A stretch of DNA of 16,784 nt from a virus. The notes under the pieces were generated by a model. It was given only the letters and a program-made list of their open reading frames with translations. It was not told where the DNA came from and ran no database searches. A program made the position numbers and the translations under genes. Within the stretch, counting starts at the first letter, position 1; each line of letters opens with the position of its first letter. Below, one piece after another: positions 2,606 through 15,714 of the stretch. The stretch lies in UHGV virus genome UHGV-0338128; one strand, given 5' to 3'.

Positions 2606-4339
2606 TTAAAGCGAGCGGATCCCGTAGGACTCAATGTGGTCAGACAGCGTGTCTTCTTTCTCGTACAACATGGCTCTGCCAACCGCCATAATCAGCGCAA
2701 CTGCACCATCGATTTTGTTTTCCGCCTGCTCTTTGACGGGTTTCACCACATCATCGTTACCCGGAATGGTTTTGCCGACCACGTTGCCGATACACCAGGT
2801 CATGATGGGATTGCCATCATGATGAAAGCGCCCCGATTCAATTGCCGCTTCCAGCTCTTTCATCGGGTCGGACATGTTGGTGTAGTTCTGAATGATAGTG
2901 ATGGGGTTCAGGTCTTCATCAGCAAGGTCATGTGACAACCCGGTCGCCCCGAAGGGGTCGATGGGTGACTCACTGACCGGGCTGATTTTGTTCGCCGCTT
3001 TGGCCTCCTCGAGGATGTAGCGATAATCCACCTCCGCACCATCGGTAACGGTCAGAACGCCCATTTCCACCCATTTCTGAAAGCGTTCGGCTGTCCGTCG
3101 ATCTTCATTTTTCTCGACGCTGTACACCGTGTCATACGGTACCCAGAAACGCGGGGCCACACTGTAGTAATGCGTTTTACCGTCAATCTCGCGGGTATAA
3201 AGTCGCGCCATGCTGTTCATATCCAGCTTACGCGCCAGGTCAAAGGCCAGAATGCACGGCTGCCCCTCGAACTGCTCAAGGGTCAGTGATTTATCCTCGC
3301 AGCTCTGCCAGCTCACCAGGTTGAAATACGCCGAACGCGCCGACACCCAGATATTGAGGTGTTTTGTTTTAAAGACGTTTGCCAGACGGGCGTTATTTTT
3401 CGCACGCTGCTGCTGACTTAACAAAAATTCGCGATAAACCGACACGCCAATATTTGGATTGGCTTTTTCCAGCACCTGCGGGTCGGTCCAGTCGTCACCT
3501 TCATCAACGGTATAGATGATCCCGAACAGTTCATCGTTAGGCACCGAGCCATTGAGCATCTCGATGACTTCCCGCCGCTTGTCGTAGCACGGCCCCTCAA
3601 TGTTGTACCCGGCGGTGGTGATAGCCCACATCAGTGGCTGACGTCGCGCCCCCATCCCGGTAAGCATCGTGGTGTAAAGCGCATCGGTGGCGTGCTCGTG
3701 ATATTCATCCACCACCGCACAGTGGGGTGATGAACCATCACCGGGGTTACCGATCAGCGGTTCAAACCGCGCGCCATCCTCCGGACGGTTCATGTTTGAG
3801 GCGTTAACCTCAATCCCGAACGCTTCCGTCAGCATGGGTGTGCGTTTACACATCAGTCGAGCCGGGCGAAAGACTTCCCACGCCTGTTTCTCTGTCGTGG
3901 CACCGGAATACACTTCCGCGCCAAACTCGTTATCACAGGCAAAACAATACAGGGCAACACCGGCAGAGATTGCCGATTTGCCGTTCTTACGGGGGATTTC
4001 GGTATACACCTCCCGGAAGCGGCGCAGCCGGGAGCCTTTATTGACCCAGCCAAACGCGCAGCAGATCACAAAGAGCTGCCACGGCTCCAGCGTGATGGGC
4101 ATCCTCTTAAATGCCCACTCACCCTTGGTGTGCGGCAACAGCTGAATAAATTTGGCGGCCCGTTCAGCCAGGTCCTTGTCGAAGCGGTAACGAAACGACT
4201 TACTTTTTTCCGCCATCAGGTCATCAAGATGGCGCTGGCAGGCCTGAATCACAAACTGGCAGGCCACAATCTTTCCGCGCACGACATCCCGGGCATACTG
4301 ATTGGCAGCATTTACGTTGGGGTAAGATTTCCGGCTCAT
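2606..4339 (-). CDS. terminase large subunit
   Basis: 577-aa ORF with an ATPase-like N-terminal region ([14 protein letters not shown]..., Walker-A-like) and nuclease-like C-terminal half. Its ATG overlaps the terS stop in an ATGA junction. Confidence 0.9.
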
Positions 4340-5408: not shown

Positions 5409-5849
5409 ATGAGTATCCCCAGTTTAGATGTTCATAAAGTTGTTAAGTGCGCAGAGCATAAAAAGGCTTTAGATGCAATATCTCTCAAACTTAAGAATAA
5501 CATTATTGACTCAAGCTCTGAATACGATTTTCTTGGCGACACAATAATTTTCAATAAAGATAAAAAAAATAGGTTAACCCTCAAACTTTCAACATATGAA
5601 CTAGAACTTATTTTCAAAGAAACACTGCTAGTCATTGATGAAGCTCCTGTATTGAAGTTTGCTGCCATTGACCCAACCGATGAAAATAACAACGAGCTGA
5701 TTGATTTATTTTTATCCAAAGGTGGATTTATTTATATTAGAGAATACAAATCCGAGCCACATTATGAGTATGGCGACACTTCTCTATTTTTACATATACT
5801 TGACGCTACTCTTAAAGAGCTTAAATCTGCAAACAAAATATCCTATTAA
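5409..5849 (+). CDS. hypothetical protein, AT-rich moron, 146 aa
   Basis: ATG at 5409 with AGGTGG 7 nt upstream; the ORF track extends it to a TTG at 5346. Strongly AT-rich compared with flanking phage genes. Oriented opposite to the late operon. No family recognised. Confidence 0.55.
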   Translation: MSIPSLDVHKVVKCAEHKKALDAISLKLKNNIIDSSSEYDFLGDTIIFNKDKKNRLTLKLSTYELELIFKETLLVIDEAPVLKFAAIDPTDENNNELIDLFLSKGGFIYIREYKSEPHYEYGDTSLFLHILDATLKELKSANKISY

Positions 5850-8152: not shown

Positions 8153-8905
8153 TTATCTCGTCACCTTTCTCAATTGTGTTTCAGCATATGCTTCTTCCTG
8201 CCAGCACTTTGTTACTAGTTTATCAATTACGTCTGCATATCCTTTGTACCACTGATAATCAGTCAGGTCTGGAACCAGCTTCTGGACATGACGTCGTGCC
8301 AGTGTAGTCGGTAAACGGCTAAACCGGTTTCCATTGCAACGCCCACAAGTCTTATAAACAGGCGTGCCATGAAGCCGGGTTCTTTTTTCATCCAGGACAA
8401 TACCTTTACCCTTACACCCTCTGCACGCCGTGCTGACTTCTCCCTTGCCATGACAATGCTGACACAGTTCCTTCACCCACTCTTCTTTGATAACGGATTC
8501 CCCGCTTCTGGAATGTTTCACCACTTCGCGCAATACATTATGAAATCCAGTACCAGTACAATGCTCACAGCGAGCCTTACTTGCCGCAGACCTGGAATAA
8601 TCAGCAAAGGCAAAATTCACAAGGTAAGGGATGATCTGTAACCGGGTTTCTTCACTCAATTTGTTCAATGTCGGGTTATCCAGTGCCATCGCGTAATTGA
8701 GCAGGCCTTCAATCGCAAACTGAGGATCCTGAACACCAACTTTTGCCAAGAATAAGGCAAACCCAAGCGGTGCTTTCGACTGCACCATCCCCTGCGCAGC
8801 CATTACATCCGTAATTGTTAAACCACCCGAGCCTGTCGCCGATGCGTCATCGCTCAATTTTGGAGATTTTGGGGAGTAATATTTCGGTAAGGCTTCAAGG
8901 TTCAT
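8153..8905 (-). CDS. Q: late-gene antiterminator Q (cysteine-rich, zinc-finger type)
   Basis: Start at the ATG at 8905 (MNLEALPKYY...) with GGAGAA upstream; the ORF track extends 14 codons further. Contains CEHCTGTG, CQHCHGKG, CRGCKGKG and CGRCNGN motifs. Sits immediately upstream of the candidate PR'/tR' and lysis genes; I recall similar Q proteins in Stx-type lambdoid phages. Confidence 0.8.
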   Translation of the reverse strand: MNLEALPKYYSPKSPKLSDDASATGSGGLTITDVMAAQGMVQSKAPLGFALFLAKVGVQDPQFAIEGLLNYAMALDNPTLNKLSEETRLQIIPYLVNFAFADYSRSAASKARCEHCTGTGFHNVLREVVKHSRSGESVIKEEWVKELCQHCHGKGEVSTACRGCKGKGIVLDEKRTRLHGTPVYKTCGRCNGNRFSRLPTTLARRHVQKLVPDLTDYQWYKGYADVIDKLVTKCWQEEAYAETQLRKVTR

Positions 8906-9915: not shown

Positions 9916-10725
9916 TCAATGAACGGTATCGAGCAACTTTAACAGCTCAGGGAATCGGGATTCGAAGAAATGCGGCTGCGTCTCGCGCGGATTTGCGGGA
10001 CTGATGATGTTCTTGCCGAACATGCAACCTTTCGCTGTCAGCGACCAGAATTTTTTGATGTTGTTAATCGTGGTACGGCTGTATCGTTCACGTTGTTCAA
10101 CGATCCCCAGCTTCGCCATCTGGTGATATGCCTGATTAGCTGTCAGGCGGATACCATACTGCTTCAGCAGTGCACTCAGTGACAGCGTGGGGCGGCTTGA
10201 GCCATCAGGCGCGTCAGCAGGAGCATCAATGGCATAGCGCGGTGCCAGATTCGGTAAGCCAACAGCCTCCTGGAGTTTCTGACAGGCACCAAGCACTGAA
10301 GAGTTAGACAGGTTTAATTCCCGGCGCATAAAGTCCAGCAGAATCACACCAGCCTGCATCTTGTCAGCAGCCTGTCCGGATAATTTTTCCGGTGCGCTGG
10401 TTACCATGTCGAAAGTACGGATCACCTTCAGATGGAATGACGGGCTGATCCACATTGCATAGGCATACACCAGTTCTTTGCAGACATACGTCCCCTGGTT
10501 ATTTCCGCCATTAATGACGCTAACTGGTTGATTTTGTTCCAGAGGCGGAATTCCACCCTCGGTGAAAAGTTGTTCAATCAATTCACAGGTTTGCTTATTG
10601 GAGAGCCAGTATTTCGGGCGGTTTTTTTGTTCTCCCCCGGCTGCCCTGTGCAGATCGTTCAGGCTGTAACGCCCATAAGCATCACGACGAACTTCAATAC
10701 CATCAATGACCATCAGATTATTCAT
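9916..10725 (-). CDS. KilA-N domain protein
   Basis: N-terminus MNNLMVIDGIEVRRDAYGRYSLNDLHRAAGGEQKNRPKYWLSNKQTCELIEQ matches the KilA-N DNA-binding domain pattern. GGAGA SD upstream of the ATG at 10725. Confidence 0.7.
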   Translation of the reverse strand: MNNLMVIDGIEVRRDAYGRYSLNDLHRAAGGEQKNRPKYWLSNKQTCELIEQLFTEGGIPPLEQNQPVSVINGGNNQGTYVCKELVYAYAMWISPSFHLKVIRTFDMVTSAPEKLSGQAADKMQAGVILLDFMRRELNLSNSSVLGACQKLQEAVGLPNLAPRYAIDAPADAPDGSSRPTLSLSALLKQYGIRLTANQAYHQMAKLGIVEQRERYSRTTINNIKKFWSLTAKGCMFGKNIISPANPRETQPHFFESRFPELLKLLDTVH

Positions 10726-10744: not shown

Positions 10745-11134
10745 TCAGGCGGCTGCACCCGCCGTTTTCTCGTACTTACTGATAGTGATCTCGACCTTCC
10801 CTTCCGGGATAACCGGTCCCCACTCCACCAGCATTCTTTTCACCTGGCTGTCGTCTTCCCACACACCTGCGTGGGTCAGGGCGTCAAACAGCGCCTTGTT
10901 ATAGTTATCCAGATCGCGGATCCTGTTATCCGGAGGAAACAACACGATCTCCACTGAAGCAGGTGCCGACGTTGGTTTCGGCAGACGACGTAACTGCTCA
11001 ACTATTGCTGCGCACGCCGCGCTCTGGAATTTTCGCCCCGCCGCGCTTATCAGGCTCTTACCTGCAAACGCCCCTTTGTTAGGGTGTCGCCAGTAAGTGT
11101 TCACGCTGGGCGGGAAAGGCAGGATAAGCTTCAT
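10745..11134 (-). CDS. rusA: RusA-family Holliday junction resolvase
   Basis: LPFPPSVNTYWRH... and IRDLDNYNKALFDALTHAGVWEDDSQV align with E. coli RusA (LPWPPSNNRYYRH..., [27 protein letters not shown]) as I recall it. ATGA overlap with the upstream gene. Confidence 0.85.
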   Translation of the reverse strand: MKLILPFPPSVNTYWRHPNKGAFAGKSLISAAGRKFQSAACAAIVEQLRRLPKPTSAPASVEIVLFPPDNRIRDLDNYNKALFDALTHAGVWEDDSQVKRMLVEWGPVIPEGKVEITISKYEKTAGAAA

Positions 11135-11457
11135 ACTTTCAGGCCCCTCTCATGTAACCAGTGAGTTGCACGCAGCCTGGCGTTTTCCTCACCGGCAAGC
11201 AGTGCGCGGATAATCCCGGCTGCCTCGCTGTCGTCGTCCTTCACTGTGGTATGAAGCGTGATACCCCGGGCCACGCCACGCTTTATCGTGATGACGCCTT
11301 TTTTCTCCATTGCGCGAAGATGCTCCACCGCTGCATTCACCGAACGGTATCCCAGCATGGCTGCCACCTCCTGATTGGTTGGCGGGAAACCACGTTCTTT
11401 CTGATAAGAAATCAGCATATCCAGCACCTGCTGCTGGCATTGAGTTAACGTCGTCAT
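11131..11457 (-). CDS. LexA N-terminal DNA-binding-domain homolog lacking the S24 peptidase domain (108 aa)
   Basis: From the ATG at 11457: MTTLTQCQQQVLDMLISYQKERGFPPTNQEVAAMLGYRSVNAAVEHLRAMEKKGVITIKRGVARGITL aligns without gaps to E. coli LexA residues 1-69 as I recall them ([68 protein letters not shown]). Only about 39 further residues follow and no Ser/Lys peptidase domain. Start overlaps the upstream stop (TAATG); the ORF track start at 11490 is a GTG. Confidence 0.7.
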   Translation of the reverse strand: MTTLTQCQQQVLDMLISYQKERGFPPTNQEVAAMLGYRSVNAAVEHLRAMEKKGVITIKRGVARGITLHTTVKDDDSEAAGIIRALLAGEENARLRATHWLHERGLKV

Positions 11458-11945
11458 TAACCCCCCACGTAATTCCCTGACAGATACCACTCATCACCCG
11501 ATACAGCGCGCTTGCTGCTTTTCCGTAAACACTGCTCACGACGCGCCAGAAAATTGTTTCGTTCTGGCTGGGAGTGGCTTTCACGGAATGCCGCCATCCA
11601 CACCGTTGCAGCACGACGGTATAAGCCCCTGGACTCTAGTTCTTCAGCCTGGCGGGTCAGGCACAAAATCACACGGGGATCGTTAGTGCCGACATAGAAA
11701 TTGCGCACAGGTCTGGTTTCACGAACTGGTTGTGGTTCCGGCTCCTGTGCTCTCTCAGTCAGGCGCGGGAAATGTCTGCGTGTATCCCCTTCACAACGGT
11801 GAGCCACACGCCCACTCTGACGTAACTTGCTTGCTGACTGCAGAACGCGCTGCCGTGAGTAACCAGCAAAAGCATCCGCAATGTCTCCGGAAGTACACCC
11901 CGGATGGGCTTCAATGAATTTCTGAACTTCATTCAAAAGACTCAT
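11457..11945 (-). CDS. putative PerC/Pch-like transcriptional regulator (162 aa)
   Basis: C-terminal LESRGLYRRAATVWMAAFRESHSQPERNNFLARREQCL resembles the GLWRRAA..W core I recall for PerC-family proteins. The N-terminal 60 aa looks like a winged-helix. Family assignment is from memory and tentative. Confidence 0.45.
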   Translation of the reverse strand: MSLLNEVQKFIEAHPGCTSGDIADAFAGYSRQRVLQSASKLRQSGRVAHRCEGDTRRHFPRLTERAQEPEPQPVRETRPVRNFYVGTNDPRVILCLTRQAEELESRGLYRRAATVWMAAFRESHSQPERNNFLARREQCLRKSSKRAVSGDEWYLSGNYVGG

Positions 11946-12975: not shown

Positions 12976-14123
12976 TTGCGCCCCCTTACCTCTGAAGGGT
13001 TCAGCGACAAATTTATGAGGCAGGCCAGCGCCGAAGCATCATTAATATAATCATATAAGCTAACAGCCAGCGGAGATTCGGCTTTTGCCAACATAGGATA
13101 AAGCTGCTGCAGCCAGACCTGATGAATTGATGAAATGTAGGAACAGAGAACGCTGGCGTTATGTGCAACGTCGCTCGGTACAGCGGGCTTTGAAAGCTGT
13201 TTCTCCATCTGGTTAAAGGCATTGATATATGCCTCTTTGAACTGGGCAGCACGTTTACCCGTGAAACCCATAGCAAGAAACGCAAAACCGTCGCGTGTGA
13301 TTTGGTAGCAATGAAGTTTGCGACCTGTGCAATCAGTGTAATCACTCACCGAAAAATTGCGGGCAGTGAATGATGCTGAGCATTCAAGCGTGCGGATCTT
13401 TTTCAGTACATCGTCATGACGTTTGGAGAAGAAGTTGGCAACAGCCAGGGATGAAGTAACAACCTGACCATCAACGATGGCAATTTCAGGTTGAGTGAGG
13501 GTTGGGATCGTAGCCATGATGGCAGCCTCTTTGGTGATTTTTAATAACTCACCACCAAGGCTTTCCACGACCTTATTGGTGGTGAGACGTACAGGGGTGG
13601 AAATACCGGTCACCAAAGAACCCGGCCCAACCGAAGTTGGCCCTGCACGCCCCACCATAATTTGGGCGTAATGCTGCTCATGACACAAAAAAACCGCAAG
13701 AGCGCGGTTGTGCGCTTTGGTGAATTCCGGGTTTCCACGCCCGGCCCCCGTTTTATAAGGTGCCTGAACAGTGTAACGTCCCGGAATGGCAGAATCAATG
13801 TGTTGGTGGTCCGTCACACTCAACAAAATCACGCCTGAATTTCCACAAAGGACTAAAGCACTCATGCGGGTAGTCTTTGCGAAGATAGATAACGCGCTGT
13901 GTTTCTGGTTCCCAACGAATAACATGAACATAAAGCCCTCTTCCGTCACGAAACCAGCGGTTAAGTTCCTGCACAACTCGCCCCCCACAGTCAGGTAAAG
14001 TTCTCTGTGGTTACTTACAGCCTGGTGATTTGGTAATCTGCATTCATGCCGTAACAACAGGTGTTCAGAGACGCTGACCACCAGCTGTTGCGACAAACGG
14101 TTATTTGCCGTTAAACTGTTCAT
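12972..14123 (-). CDS. Rha-family phage regulatory protein with about 200-aa N-terminal extension of unknown function
   Basis: C-terminal 181 aa (from MATIPTLTQPEIAIVDGQVVTSSLAVANFFSKRHDDVLKKIRTL...ITRDGFAFLAMGFTGKRAAQFKEAYINAFNQME) match the Rha domain pattern. The frame is open for 202 further codons upstream to an ATG at 14123 that overlaps the CII-like stop (ATGA) and has GGAGA upstream. An internal ATG at 13517 with AAAGAGG SD sits exactly at the Rha domain start. Confidence 0.65.
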   Translation of the reverse strand: MNSLTANNRLSQQLVVSVSEHLLLRHECRLPNHQAVSNHRELYLTVGGELCRNLTAGFVTEEGFMFMLFVGNQKHSALSIFAKTTRMSALVLCGNSGVILLSVTDHQHIDSAIPGRYTVQAPYKTGAGRGNPEFTKAHNRALAVFLCHEQHYAQIMVGRAGPTSVGPGSLVTGISTPVRLTTNKVVESLGGELLKITKEAAIMATIPTLTQPEIAIVDGQVVTSSLAVANFFSKRHDDVLKKIRTLECSASFTARNFSVSDYTDCTGRKLHCYQITRDGFAFLAMGFTGKRAAQFKEAYINAFNQMEKQLSKPAVPSDVAHNASVLCSYISSIHQVWLQQLYPMLAKAESPLAVSLYDYINDASALACLINLSLNPSEVRGRK

Positions 14124-15021: not shown

Positions 15022-15714
15022 ATGAACATAGGAAATCGAGTCAGACAACTTCGCCAAGCGAAGAACATGAAAATCGCCGATCTCGCTGAAGCAATAGGAG
15101 TGGATGCGGCAAATATCTCGCGCCTGGAAACAGGTAAGCAGAAACAATTCACTGAACAAGCCCTGAGTAATATTGCCAGGAGCTTAGGTGTTGATATTGC
15201 TGATCTCTTTACCTCAGACTTCAAAAGTAATACTGTATGTAAAAACAGTATTAGTGAGGATGTTGCGCAGGTGAAGGATGTATTCCGTATTGAAATGCTG
15301 GATATCAGTGCCAGTGCGGGAAATGGCCTTATCCAGGGCGGTGATGTCATTGATGTGATTCATGCCATTGAATACAGAACTGATAATGCTGTATCGATGT
15401 TTGGCGGACGGCCAGCAAATCACATTAAAGTAATCAACGTTCGTGGGGACAGTATGTGTCCAACCATTGAGCCAGGAGATCTCATCTTCGTTGATGTCAG
15501 TATCAATCAGTTTGATGGAGATGGTATCTATGTATTTGGTTTTGATGATAAAATTTATGTCAAACGACTGCAAATGATACCTGACAAACTACTGGTGATT
15601 TCTGATAACCAGATTTACCGTGAATGGGGAATTACCAGCGAAAATGAACACCGGTTTATGGTCTTTGGAAAGGTCTTAATCAGCCAGTCACAAACCCTTA
15701 AGCGACACAATTAA
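15022..15714 (+). CDS. cI: CI-like prophage repressor (N-terminal XRE HTH, C-terminal S24 LexA-like autopeptidase)
   Basis: HTH (MKIADLAEAIGVDAANISRLETGKQ), an Ala-Gly candidate cleavage site (SASAGNG), and a peptidase signature (VRGDSMCPTIEPGDLIFVD ... VKRL). Confidence 0.9.
   Translation: MNIGNRVRQLRQAKNMKIADLAEAIGVDAANISRLETGKQKQFTEQALSNIARSLGVDIADLFTSDFKSNTVCKNSISEDVAQVKDVFRIEMLDISASAGNGLIQGGDVIDVIHAIEYRTDNAVSMFGGRPANHIKVINVRGDSMCPTIEPGDLIFVDVSINQFDGDGIYVFGFDDKIYVKRLQMIPDKLLVISDNQIYREWGITSENEHRFMVFGKVLISQSQTLKRHN
15231..15250. promoter_or_regulatory. near-consensus LexA (SOS) box TACTGTATGTAAAAACAGTA inside the cI coding sequence
   Basis: Perfect TACTG-N10-CAGTA with an AT-rich spacer; falls in the linker between the HTH and peptidase domains of the CI-like protein (codons for SNTVCKNSI). 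Confidence 0.45.

Follow-up and report, generated by a model that had tools for sequence, protein, structure and literature searches.

The closest characterised analogue of the gene described here is found in a Gram-positive tectivirus. In GIL01, a tectivirus of Bacillus thuringiensis, gp6 is a truncated homologue of LexA; it recognises GaCACAnnTGTGaC and acts as an activator of the late promoter P3 (PMC6182141). The gene under study lies at positions 11,131–11,457, minus strand, of the UHGV virus genome UHGV-0338128, a stretch of 16,784 nucleotides that is referred to as the window, and encodes a LexA-like protein of 108 amino acids. Like gp6, the protein is phage-encoded, lacks the catalytic domain and is in essence the DNA-binding domain of LexA, and belongs to the early phase, during SOS-triggered induction. 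The two proteins, which were compared by description only, differ in several respects. Gp6 has no C-terminal hairpin, its K38 reads a palindrome that is not of the LexA type, and its role is late-promoter activation, whereas the protein of the window has host-type recognition residues (SVNAAVEH), comes from a lambdoid phage that depends on Q, and shows an association with canonical SOS boxes.

The gene has already been catalogued. It is annotated as 'LexA family transcriptional regulator' at NCBI and belongs to PHROG 362; in a genomics survey of Shiga toxin (Stx) phages it appears as pham 237, LexA family transcriptional regulator, pfam01726 (PMC8136144). For SfV orf42 and the LexA-like proteins of lambdoid and Stx phages, the literature that was searched yielded annotation-level mentions only, and no functional study was found. 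Our analysis gives about an even chance that the protein is a RecA-insensitive LexA surrogate, which would re-repress SOS-box promoters during induction. The domain identity, the absence of a peptidase, the conservation and selection, the synteny and the family's association with SOS-box promoters are established; from these we infer the DNA specificity, the dimerisation, the repression and the physiological benefit.

Domain content and DNA recognition

The gene and the parts of its product are located as follows.

11131..11457, minus strand: LexA-like gene, a 327-nt open reading frame (ORF) for 108 amino acids, with ATG at 11457–11455 and TGA at 11133–11131 (ORF and translation)
11251..11457, minus strand: LexA-type winged helix-turn-helix (wHTH), codons 1–69, with helices at 6–22, 28–35 and 40–52 and strands at 56–58 and 66–68
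11302..11343, minus strand: recognition helix SVNAAVEHLRAMEK, codons 39–52, from the LexA alignment and the contact residues of PMC3091678
11227..11250, minus strand: acidic linker TTVKDDDS, codons 70–77, modelled with low confidence (predicted local distance difference test, pLDDT, below 50 at residues 71–75)
11146..11226, minus strand: predicted amphipathic two-helix hairpin, codons 78–104, a probable dimerisation module

The product begins MTTLTQCQQQ and ends ERGLKV. A GTG at 11490 was rejected as the start codon, as the homologues and LexA both start at the ATG at 11457.

Pfam assigns residues 1–65 to LexA_DNA_bind (PF01726; E=2e-18, 66.4 bits against a cutoff of 23.7). The same scan of the 108-residue protein returned no Peptidase_S24, and the chain ends at residue 108. 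Only model positions 1–91 of 203 of the NCBIfam lexA equivalog (TIGR00498) are matched, with a score of 65.8 that falls below the cutoff of 110.95, and PHROG 362 ('transcriptional repressor') aligns to residues 1–108 over profile positions 1–106 of 106 (E=6.2e-58). In a phmmer search of the PDB, residues 2–69 align without gaps to residues 2–69 of Escherichia coli LexA (1lea, 3jso; E about 1e-15), with the recognition region RSVNAAVEHL inside the gapless alignment. The AlphaFold2 model, with a mean pLDDT of 83.9, displays helices and a two-stranded wing as in LexA, and superimposes in Foldseek to the LexA chains of the LexA-DNA complex 3jso with a root mean square deviation of 1.0 Å over 67–68 columns at 48–49% identity. 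The identity of the wHTH to E. coli LexA is 44–50%, depending on the alignment.

Judged by these comparisons, residues 1–69 are a true LexA DNA-binding domain and more than a generic winged helix. The first-pass annotation of this DNA had described a gapless likeness to the first 69 residues of LexA, the lack of an S24 peptidase domain and, as a consequence, insensitivity to RecA-stimulated cleavage. The profile searches and the superposition to 3jso bear out the first two points, and insensitivity to RecA-stimulated self-cleavage would be expected because the S24 domain is absent. The Ala-Gly of the window allele (LLAGEE) is not conserved either, the relatives having AN or VG there. A reading of the tail as a relic or pseudo-substrate of the LexA cleavage site ('ALLAGEE' versus 'VAAGEP') was rejected on this ground, together with the predicted helical state of the region. 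The HTH_3/XRE plus S24 architecture is that of the cI product of the window (15022–15714), and the LexA-like protein does not have it.

The residues of E. coli LexA that contact DNA are S39, N41, A42, E44 and E45, all in helix III (PMC3091678). The corresponding residues of the phage protein are S, N, A, V and E, so that four of the five are kept and E44 is replaced by V. Across the family S39 is invariant, as are R64, G65 and I66 of the wing; N41 is nearly so, and E45 is present in most members. Most members, down to about 40% identity, retain the helix S-x-N-A-A-x-E-H-L, which is typical of CTGT-type LexA proteins. In the LexA408 variant, the substitutions P40A, N41S and A42S change the preferred half-site from CTGT to CCGT; the phage protein retains the wild-type N41 and A42, which argues for CTGT specificity. 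The wHTH most likely recognises the CTGT-N8-ACAG SOS boxes of host LexA, and the SOS-box binding that was originally proposed for the phage protein is plausible. The isolated N-terminal fragment of LexA reportedly binds operators specifically, though more weakly.

The C-terminal part is where the protein departs from LexA. Hairpin helices are predicted by AlphaFold2 at residues 75–88 and 93–103 with a pLDDT of about 90. The preceding linker varies in length and sequence among relatives, and the tail pattern IIRALLAGE..AR.RA..WL persists in relatives of as little as 38% identity, its A97 and L101 being the same throughout. Because a lone two-helix amphipathic hairpin would not be stable by itself, the hairpin most likely serves as a dimerisation module in place of the LexA C-terminal domain. 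The first-pass annotation had seen only a short acidic tail, and thereby overlooked this conserved and confidently predicted hairpin behind the acidic linker. It had also envisaged inactive heterodimers with host LexA; these are unlikely because the dimer interface of LexA lies in the absent C-terminal domain, to which the tail is unrelated.

A role as an antagonist or modulator of host LexA, through half-site competition or mixed complexes on DNA, is likewise improbable. Such a protein would loosen or re-time LexA control, with faster induction of SOS-box-controlled phage genes or LexA poisoning of the kind first suggested as possible effects. It would draw on the DNA-binding fold and contact residues that the protein shares with LexA. 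Moreover, the half-site spacing of LexA is reportedly fixed by wing-wing contacts within the DNA-binding domains, and such contacts on DNA could permit mixed occupancy. However, the known dimer interface is missing along with the LexA C-terminal domain, any protein that sits on a promoter-overlapping operator will normally repress, and in this phage the protein is made after the depletion of LexA, when little of it is left.

Taken against E. coli LexA, the phage protein thus shares the gapless wHTH of residues 2–69, with S39/N41/A42/E45 and R64-G65-I66 kept. It differs in the lack of the S24 peptidase and dimerisation domain (no Ser119/Lys156), in the unconserved Ala-Gly, in its novel C-terminal hairpin, in being a phage gene of the nin region and in falling below the NCBIfam equivalog cutoff. 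Its domain content is also that of the N-terminal product of LexA self-cleavage (residues 1–84). This natural fragment reportedly ends in an exposed ClpXP degron (…VAA) and is quickly degraded, whereas the phage protein ends …ERGLKV and carries the added helical module.

Standalone LexA_DNA_bind proteins of other architectures occur. The protein of Edwardsiella phage EPP-1 has 71 amino acids and no tail, and the proteins P0131, P0137, P0158 and P0163 (about 160–220 amino acids) contain two tandem LexA_DNA_bind domains in one chain, without S24. The tandem-domain and tail-less proteins would be other solutions to the problem of dimerisation.

Conservation and origin of the family

Proteins that are 93–98% identical are encoded by SfV (orf42), SfII, SfIV, cdtI, mEp460 and many Stx2a and Stx2c phages. 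Of 5,426 complete E. coli genomes, about 2,700 contain the 1.3-kb region around the gene. In IMG/VR, a single-protein search found at least 593 viral contigs that encode the protein. The 141 full-length copies represent 86 nucleotide alleles, all of them intact, and the ratio of nonsynonymous to synonymous polymorphism (pN/pS) among these alleles is 0.117 overall, 0.043 in the wHTH and 0.21 in the tail. These values indicate strong purifying selection on the gene. Full-length relatives of 105–135 amino acids with 38–54% identity, which have both the wHTH and the tail, came from an exhaustive HMMER search of 1.84 billion representatives. By sequence, the family is an old lineage and no recent capture of host lexA, because the identity to E. 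coli LexA is only 44–50%.

The truncated appearance of the protein, and the 'AG' of the window allele at the position of the LexA cleavage site, could suggest a decaying and functionless remnant of a captured host lexA. This explanation is effectively refuted by the low pN/pS and the 86 intact alleles out of 86, by the abundance of the gene in viral contigs and complete E. coli genomes, by the conservation of the full architecture at 38–54% identity, including a tail unrelated to LexA, and by the distance to E. coli LexA noted above.

The position of the gene is also retained. In relatives of 38–45% identity, too, it lies between the replication genes and RusA-DUF968-Q, directly 5' of the latter (RusA is absent in two lineages), and the position is constant despite quite different replication modules. 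It was found in the phages mEp390 (L164), Klebsiella phage ST846-OXA48phi9.1 (L165) and Edwardsiella phage EPP-1 (L166), and in the genomic loci of P0128, P0142, P0235, P0123, P0165, P0218, P0184 and P0139.

SOS boxes and the proposed role

SOS boxes were sought with a rough 20-nt position weight matrix (PWM) derived from SOS boxes of E. coli, whose matches are unambiguous sites of the type TACTGT-N8-ACAGTA. The window has a single strong match.

15231..15250, no strand assigned: SOS box TACTGTATGTAAAAACAGTA, 25.7 bits, with an exact CTGT-N8-ACAG; no shuffled sequence reached 20 bits

The box lies in codons 70–77 of cI, in the linker between the helix-turn-helix and S24 domains. All 80 IMG/VR loci with this cI contain it, as does mEp460. 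Host LexA is a candidate to bind it in cis, and the phage protein possibly is too. A functional dependence of the box on the LexA-like gene was rejected, and the specific link between the two that had been supposed at first does not hold: of the 60 box loci whose flanks are long enough, 8 are without the gene, and among the 80 gene-carrying loci at least 54 show no such box in the DNA examined, which does not always reach cI. An exact CTGT-N8-ACAG at 14005–14020 was discarded as an SOS box; it scores below 9 bits on the PWM because its spacer is GC-rich. Weak promoter-like hexamers flank the cI-internal box on both strands, those on the minus strand being TTCACC-17-AATACT (15275 to 15247). The latter may yield a LexA-controlled transcript antisense to cI and toward cro, which would be a second LexA-dependent input to the switch.

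Close relatives have further boxes. In SfV there is one, where a DNA methylase gene of the Q-S interval begins; in cdtI the methylase box is accompanied by two boxes 5' of dinI; mEp460 has the methylase box, two dinI boxes and the cI-internal box. The 80 gene-carrying IMG/VR loci (1.34 Mb, with up to 10 kb of flank on each side) contain 57 boxes of at least 16 bits, distributed over 43 loci, against 9 boxes in 80 lambda-cro control loci (1.10 Mb, none with the gene), of which only 2 reach 20 bits. This enrichment is only suggestive.

The more diverged lineages are more informative. A canonical SOS box is located in the promoter of the transcription unit of the LexA-like gene in five of ten testable lineages, against a control background of 2 boxes of at least 20 bits per 1.1 Mb. 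Positions in the following lines are those of the respective loci.

L251 (P0142), 5560–5579: box ACCTGTACATTCATACAGTA, directly after a terminator and TTGCAA-17-AATAAT
L253 (P0235), 5561–5580: box TACTGTTTATATATACAGTG, heading a unit between terminators at 5476–5495 and, after Q, 8237–8260
L256 (P0218), 3242–3261 and 3258–3277: two boxes, the first TACTGTATAAAAATACAGTT, 49 bp 5' of a RecA_C-like ORF
L257 (P0184), 513–532: box TACTGTTTATTTATACAGTA, 20 bp 5' of dinI
L166 (EPP-1), 2731–2750: box AACTGTATGTAAATCCAGTA, 5' of the ORF that precedes the LexA-like gene

The proteins P0142, P0184, P0218 and P0235 are mutually only 36–54% identical. No upstream box was found in the five other testable lineages, which are the window clade, mEp390, P0128, P0123 and P0165. 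By analogy, a LexA-like unit headed by an SOS box mirrors host lexA, which is itself under SOS boxes. The unit of L257 runs dinI, small ORF, LexA-like gene, small ORF, DUF968, Q. DinI inhibits the co-protease activity of RecA*, and dinI together with the LexA-like gene in one SOS-box operon would make a functionally coherent SOS shut-off module. By gene order, the LexA-like gene of Klebsiella phage ST846-OXA48phi9.1 also lies just 3' of dinI, where the record starts.

Two further features of these units were observed. Q shares the terminator-bracketed unit of the LexA-like gene, 3' of the SOS-box promoter, in L253 (5476–8260), L257 (513–3133) and L251 (5530–8413), and in those relatives Q could be expressed upon LexA cleavage independently of PR and CI. 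In L256, the 95-residue ORF at 3310–3597, which has a RecA_C Pfam match, follows directly behind the two overlapping boxes and precedes the LexA-like gene; it may be a further phage-encoded modulator of SOS or RecA.

In the window the gene is differently controlled. The sequence between PR and the LexA-like gene contains no promoter-like site and no strong terminator. For this reason the gene is considered delayed-early, without a promoter of its own, transcribed from PR and made only after CI inactivation.

These data allow a mechanism to be proposed for the LexA surrogate. Upon DNA damage, RecA* would remove host LexA and CI. The phage would then make a RecA*-proof look-alike of LexA, in the window from PR and in other lineages from an SOS-box promoter of its own; because expression from PR needs CI to be inactivated, the surrogate would appear when host LexA is cleaved. 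The surrogate would not have the ClpXP degron end attributed to the natural N-terminal fragment of LexA. As a dimer, it would re-occupy SOS boxes of the phage and of the host regulon, the phage targets being the cI-internal box in the window, and the dinI and late-region methylase boxes in close relatives. Phage accessory genes induced by SOS and the host SOS regulon would thus be silenced again during phage growth, and LexA-controlled antirepressors, colicins and toxins that harm or compete with the phage might be silenced too.

A tentative extension, possible rather than probable in our judgement, is that the family as a whole works as a phage SOS shut-off and timer, in which a non-cleavable LexA restores repression at SOS boxes after host LexA has disappeared. 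The gene of several lineages stands under its own SOS-box promoter with dinI or a RecA_C-like fragment, plus Q. There, cleavage of LexA would turn on Q at the same time as the surrogate, which would then reclose the promoter, with a self-limiting pulse as the outcome. In phages of E. coli and Shigella and in Stx phages, synthesis from PR during induction would let the same protein shut down the SOS regulon of the host, along with competing prophages, colicins and toxins under LexA control.

Several points weigh against the surrogate. In the tailed family E44 is never kept (A, F, T or Y in relatives), and only the tail-less EPP-1 protein keeps it; E45 or N41 is changed in P0088 (G45), P0184 (L45), P0235 (I45) and P0218 (Y41). 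Some parts of the family, among them two lineages with an upstream SOS box, may therefore have shifted in specificity. The window clade has no SOS box 5' of the gene, and no strong box was found in 37 of the 80 loci within the flanks examined; the cI box, for its part, occurs in 8 of 60 loci that do not carry the gene. The enrichment over the control reflects few independent events because two recurrent and linked sites, in cI and the methylase gene, carry it, and the PWM is a rough one. Finally, an upstream SOS box, strictly taken, proves control by host LexA only, and autoregulation by the phage protein would be a further step.

The same residue changes and the loci without a box are consistent with a phage-specific regulator of diverged specificity, comparable to GIL01 gp6, that would bind a non-SOS operator and repress or activate a phage promoter, for instance one that sets the expression of Q, RusA, DUF968 or the late genes. 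We regard this as unlikely, though by no means negligible. The gp6 precedent, in which a truncated LexA homologue binds GaCACAnnTGTGaC and activates P3, speaks for it and against the surrogate, and the invariant position directly 5' of RusA-DUF968-Q across replication modules fits it as well. On the other hand, most members keep the S-x-N-A-A-x-E-H-L helix, the late transcription of lambdoid phages is already served by Q, and an unrelated specificity would leave the repeated association with canonical SOS boxes and dinI unexplained. No alternative conserved palindrome was identified, in a motif search that was not exhaustive.

The gene is very common, and its carriers include Shigella serotype-converting, cdt and Stx2 phages. 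If the protein is indeed a cleavage-proof LexA, prophage induction would actively re-silence the SOS regulon. This would affect mutagenesis and error-prone polymerases, SOS-controlled toxins and colicins, LexA-controlled antirepressors of co-resident prophages, and the kinetics of antibiotic induction of Shiga-toxin phages. It would also be a second, independent phage use of a truncated LexA after GIL01 gp6, with the opposite logic: specificity kept for repression here, and a new specificity for activation in gp6. The proposed logic, a protein of a mobile element that damps or reshapes the SOS response, is shared with DinI and GIL01 gp7, small SOS modulators of prophages. These proteins are unrelated in sequence to the LexA-like protein, and act on RecA* (DinI) or on the LexA protein (gp7) rather than through DNA binding of their own.

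Neighbouring genes

The genes on either side and their junctions with the LexA-like gene are as follows.

11457..11945, minus strand: upstream neighbour, a PerC-family regulator (yfdN-like; PF06069, E=1e-9; RefSeq annotation)
11455..11466, minus strand: junction of the PerC and LexA-like genes, with a G-run at 11461–11466, then TAATG at 11455–11459
11131..11134, minus strand: junction of the LexA-like gene and rusA, where the rusA start overlaps the LexA-like stop in ATGA
10745..11134, minus strand: downstream neighbour, the RusA Holliday-junction resolvase (PF05866, E=6e-15)

As read from the sequence, the PerC stop overlaps the LexA-like start in TAATG. Stop and start codons overlap at both junctions, and the location between a PerC-like regulator and RusA that had been described for this early-right operon is confirmed. 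On the minus strand the operon runs cro, cII-like, Rha/Ash, HTH_36 replication protein, PerC, LexA-like, RusA, KilA-N, DUF968 and Q, and cI is divergent from it on the plus strand (15022–15714).

SfV, cdtI and mEp460 have the same gene order, with the addition of a Dam methylase directly 5' of the LexA-like gene. This Dam-type methylase (L001 29614–30267) follows PerC in SfV and mEp460, and cdtI has no separate PerC gene. The window lacks it, and PerC abuts the LexA-like gene directly (11455–11459). The KilA-N protein 3' of rusA (9916–10725, minus strand) gave a weak match to the PADLOC candidate defence family PDC-S22 (E=1e-6, 36 residues). A role of the LexA-like protein as a component of a defence system was rejected, as it had no PADLOC match.

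The conserved SOS box of the methyltransferase gene (T/CACTGTAAAAATAAACAGTG) is positioned at or just before the start codon, in the interval between Q and the lysis genes where stx sits in Stx phages.

L001 (SfV), 34170–34189: methyltransferase box
L002 (cdtI), 44083–44102: methyltransferase box
L003 (mEp460), 41021–41040: methyltransferase box
L253, 8739–8758: methyltransferase box

The arrangement suggests an SOS-controlled methylase moron; the window has no such methyltransferase gene. A DinI homologue is encoded behind two tandem strong SOS boxes in cdtI (L002 26458–26767) and mEp460 (L003 22993–23302), so that both phages carry an inhibitor of RecA* and the LexA-like gene, at separate loci.

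A conserved ORF of 75–82 amino acids lies directly 5' of the LexA-like gene in a subclade with N-terminally extended proteins. It has no Pfam match, and its consensus is about LPDTG[FY]A..RC.D.AVVA.F.SFP...RA.MYR....SF.PL....I.G...LFTEM.E.AGYR.

L251, 5713–5961: 75–82-residue ORF
L253, 5724–5951: 75–82-residue ORF
L256, 3722–3955: 75–82-residue ORF
L257, 797–1024: 75–82-residue ORF

The product may be a partner of the LexA-like protein. In the prophage that encodes P0235, genes with AcrVA2-like and Cas1 Pfam matches were found beside the late region (L253 9794–11390, minus strand).

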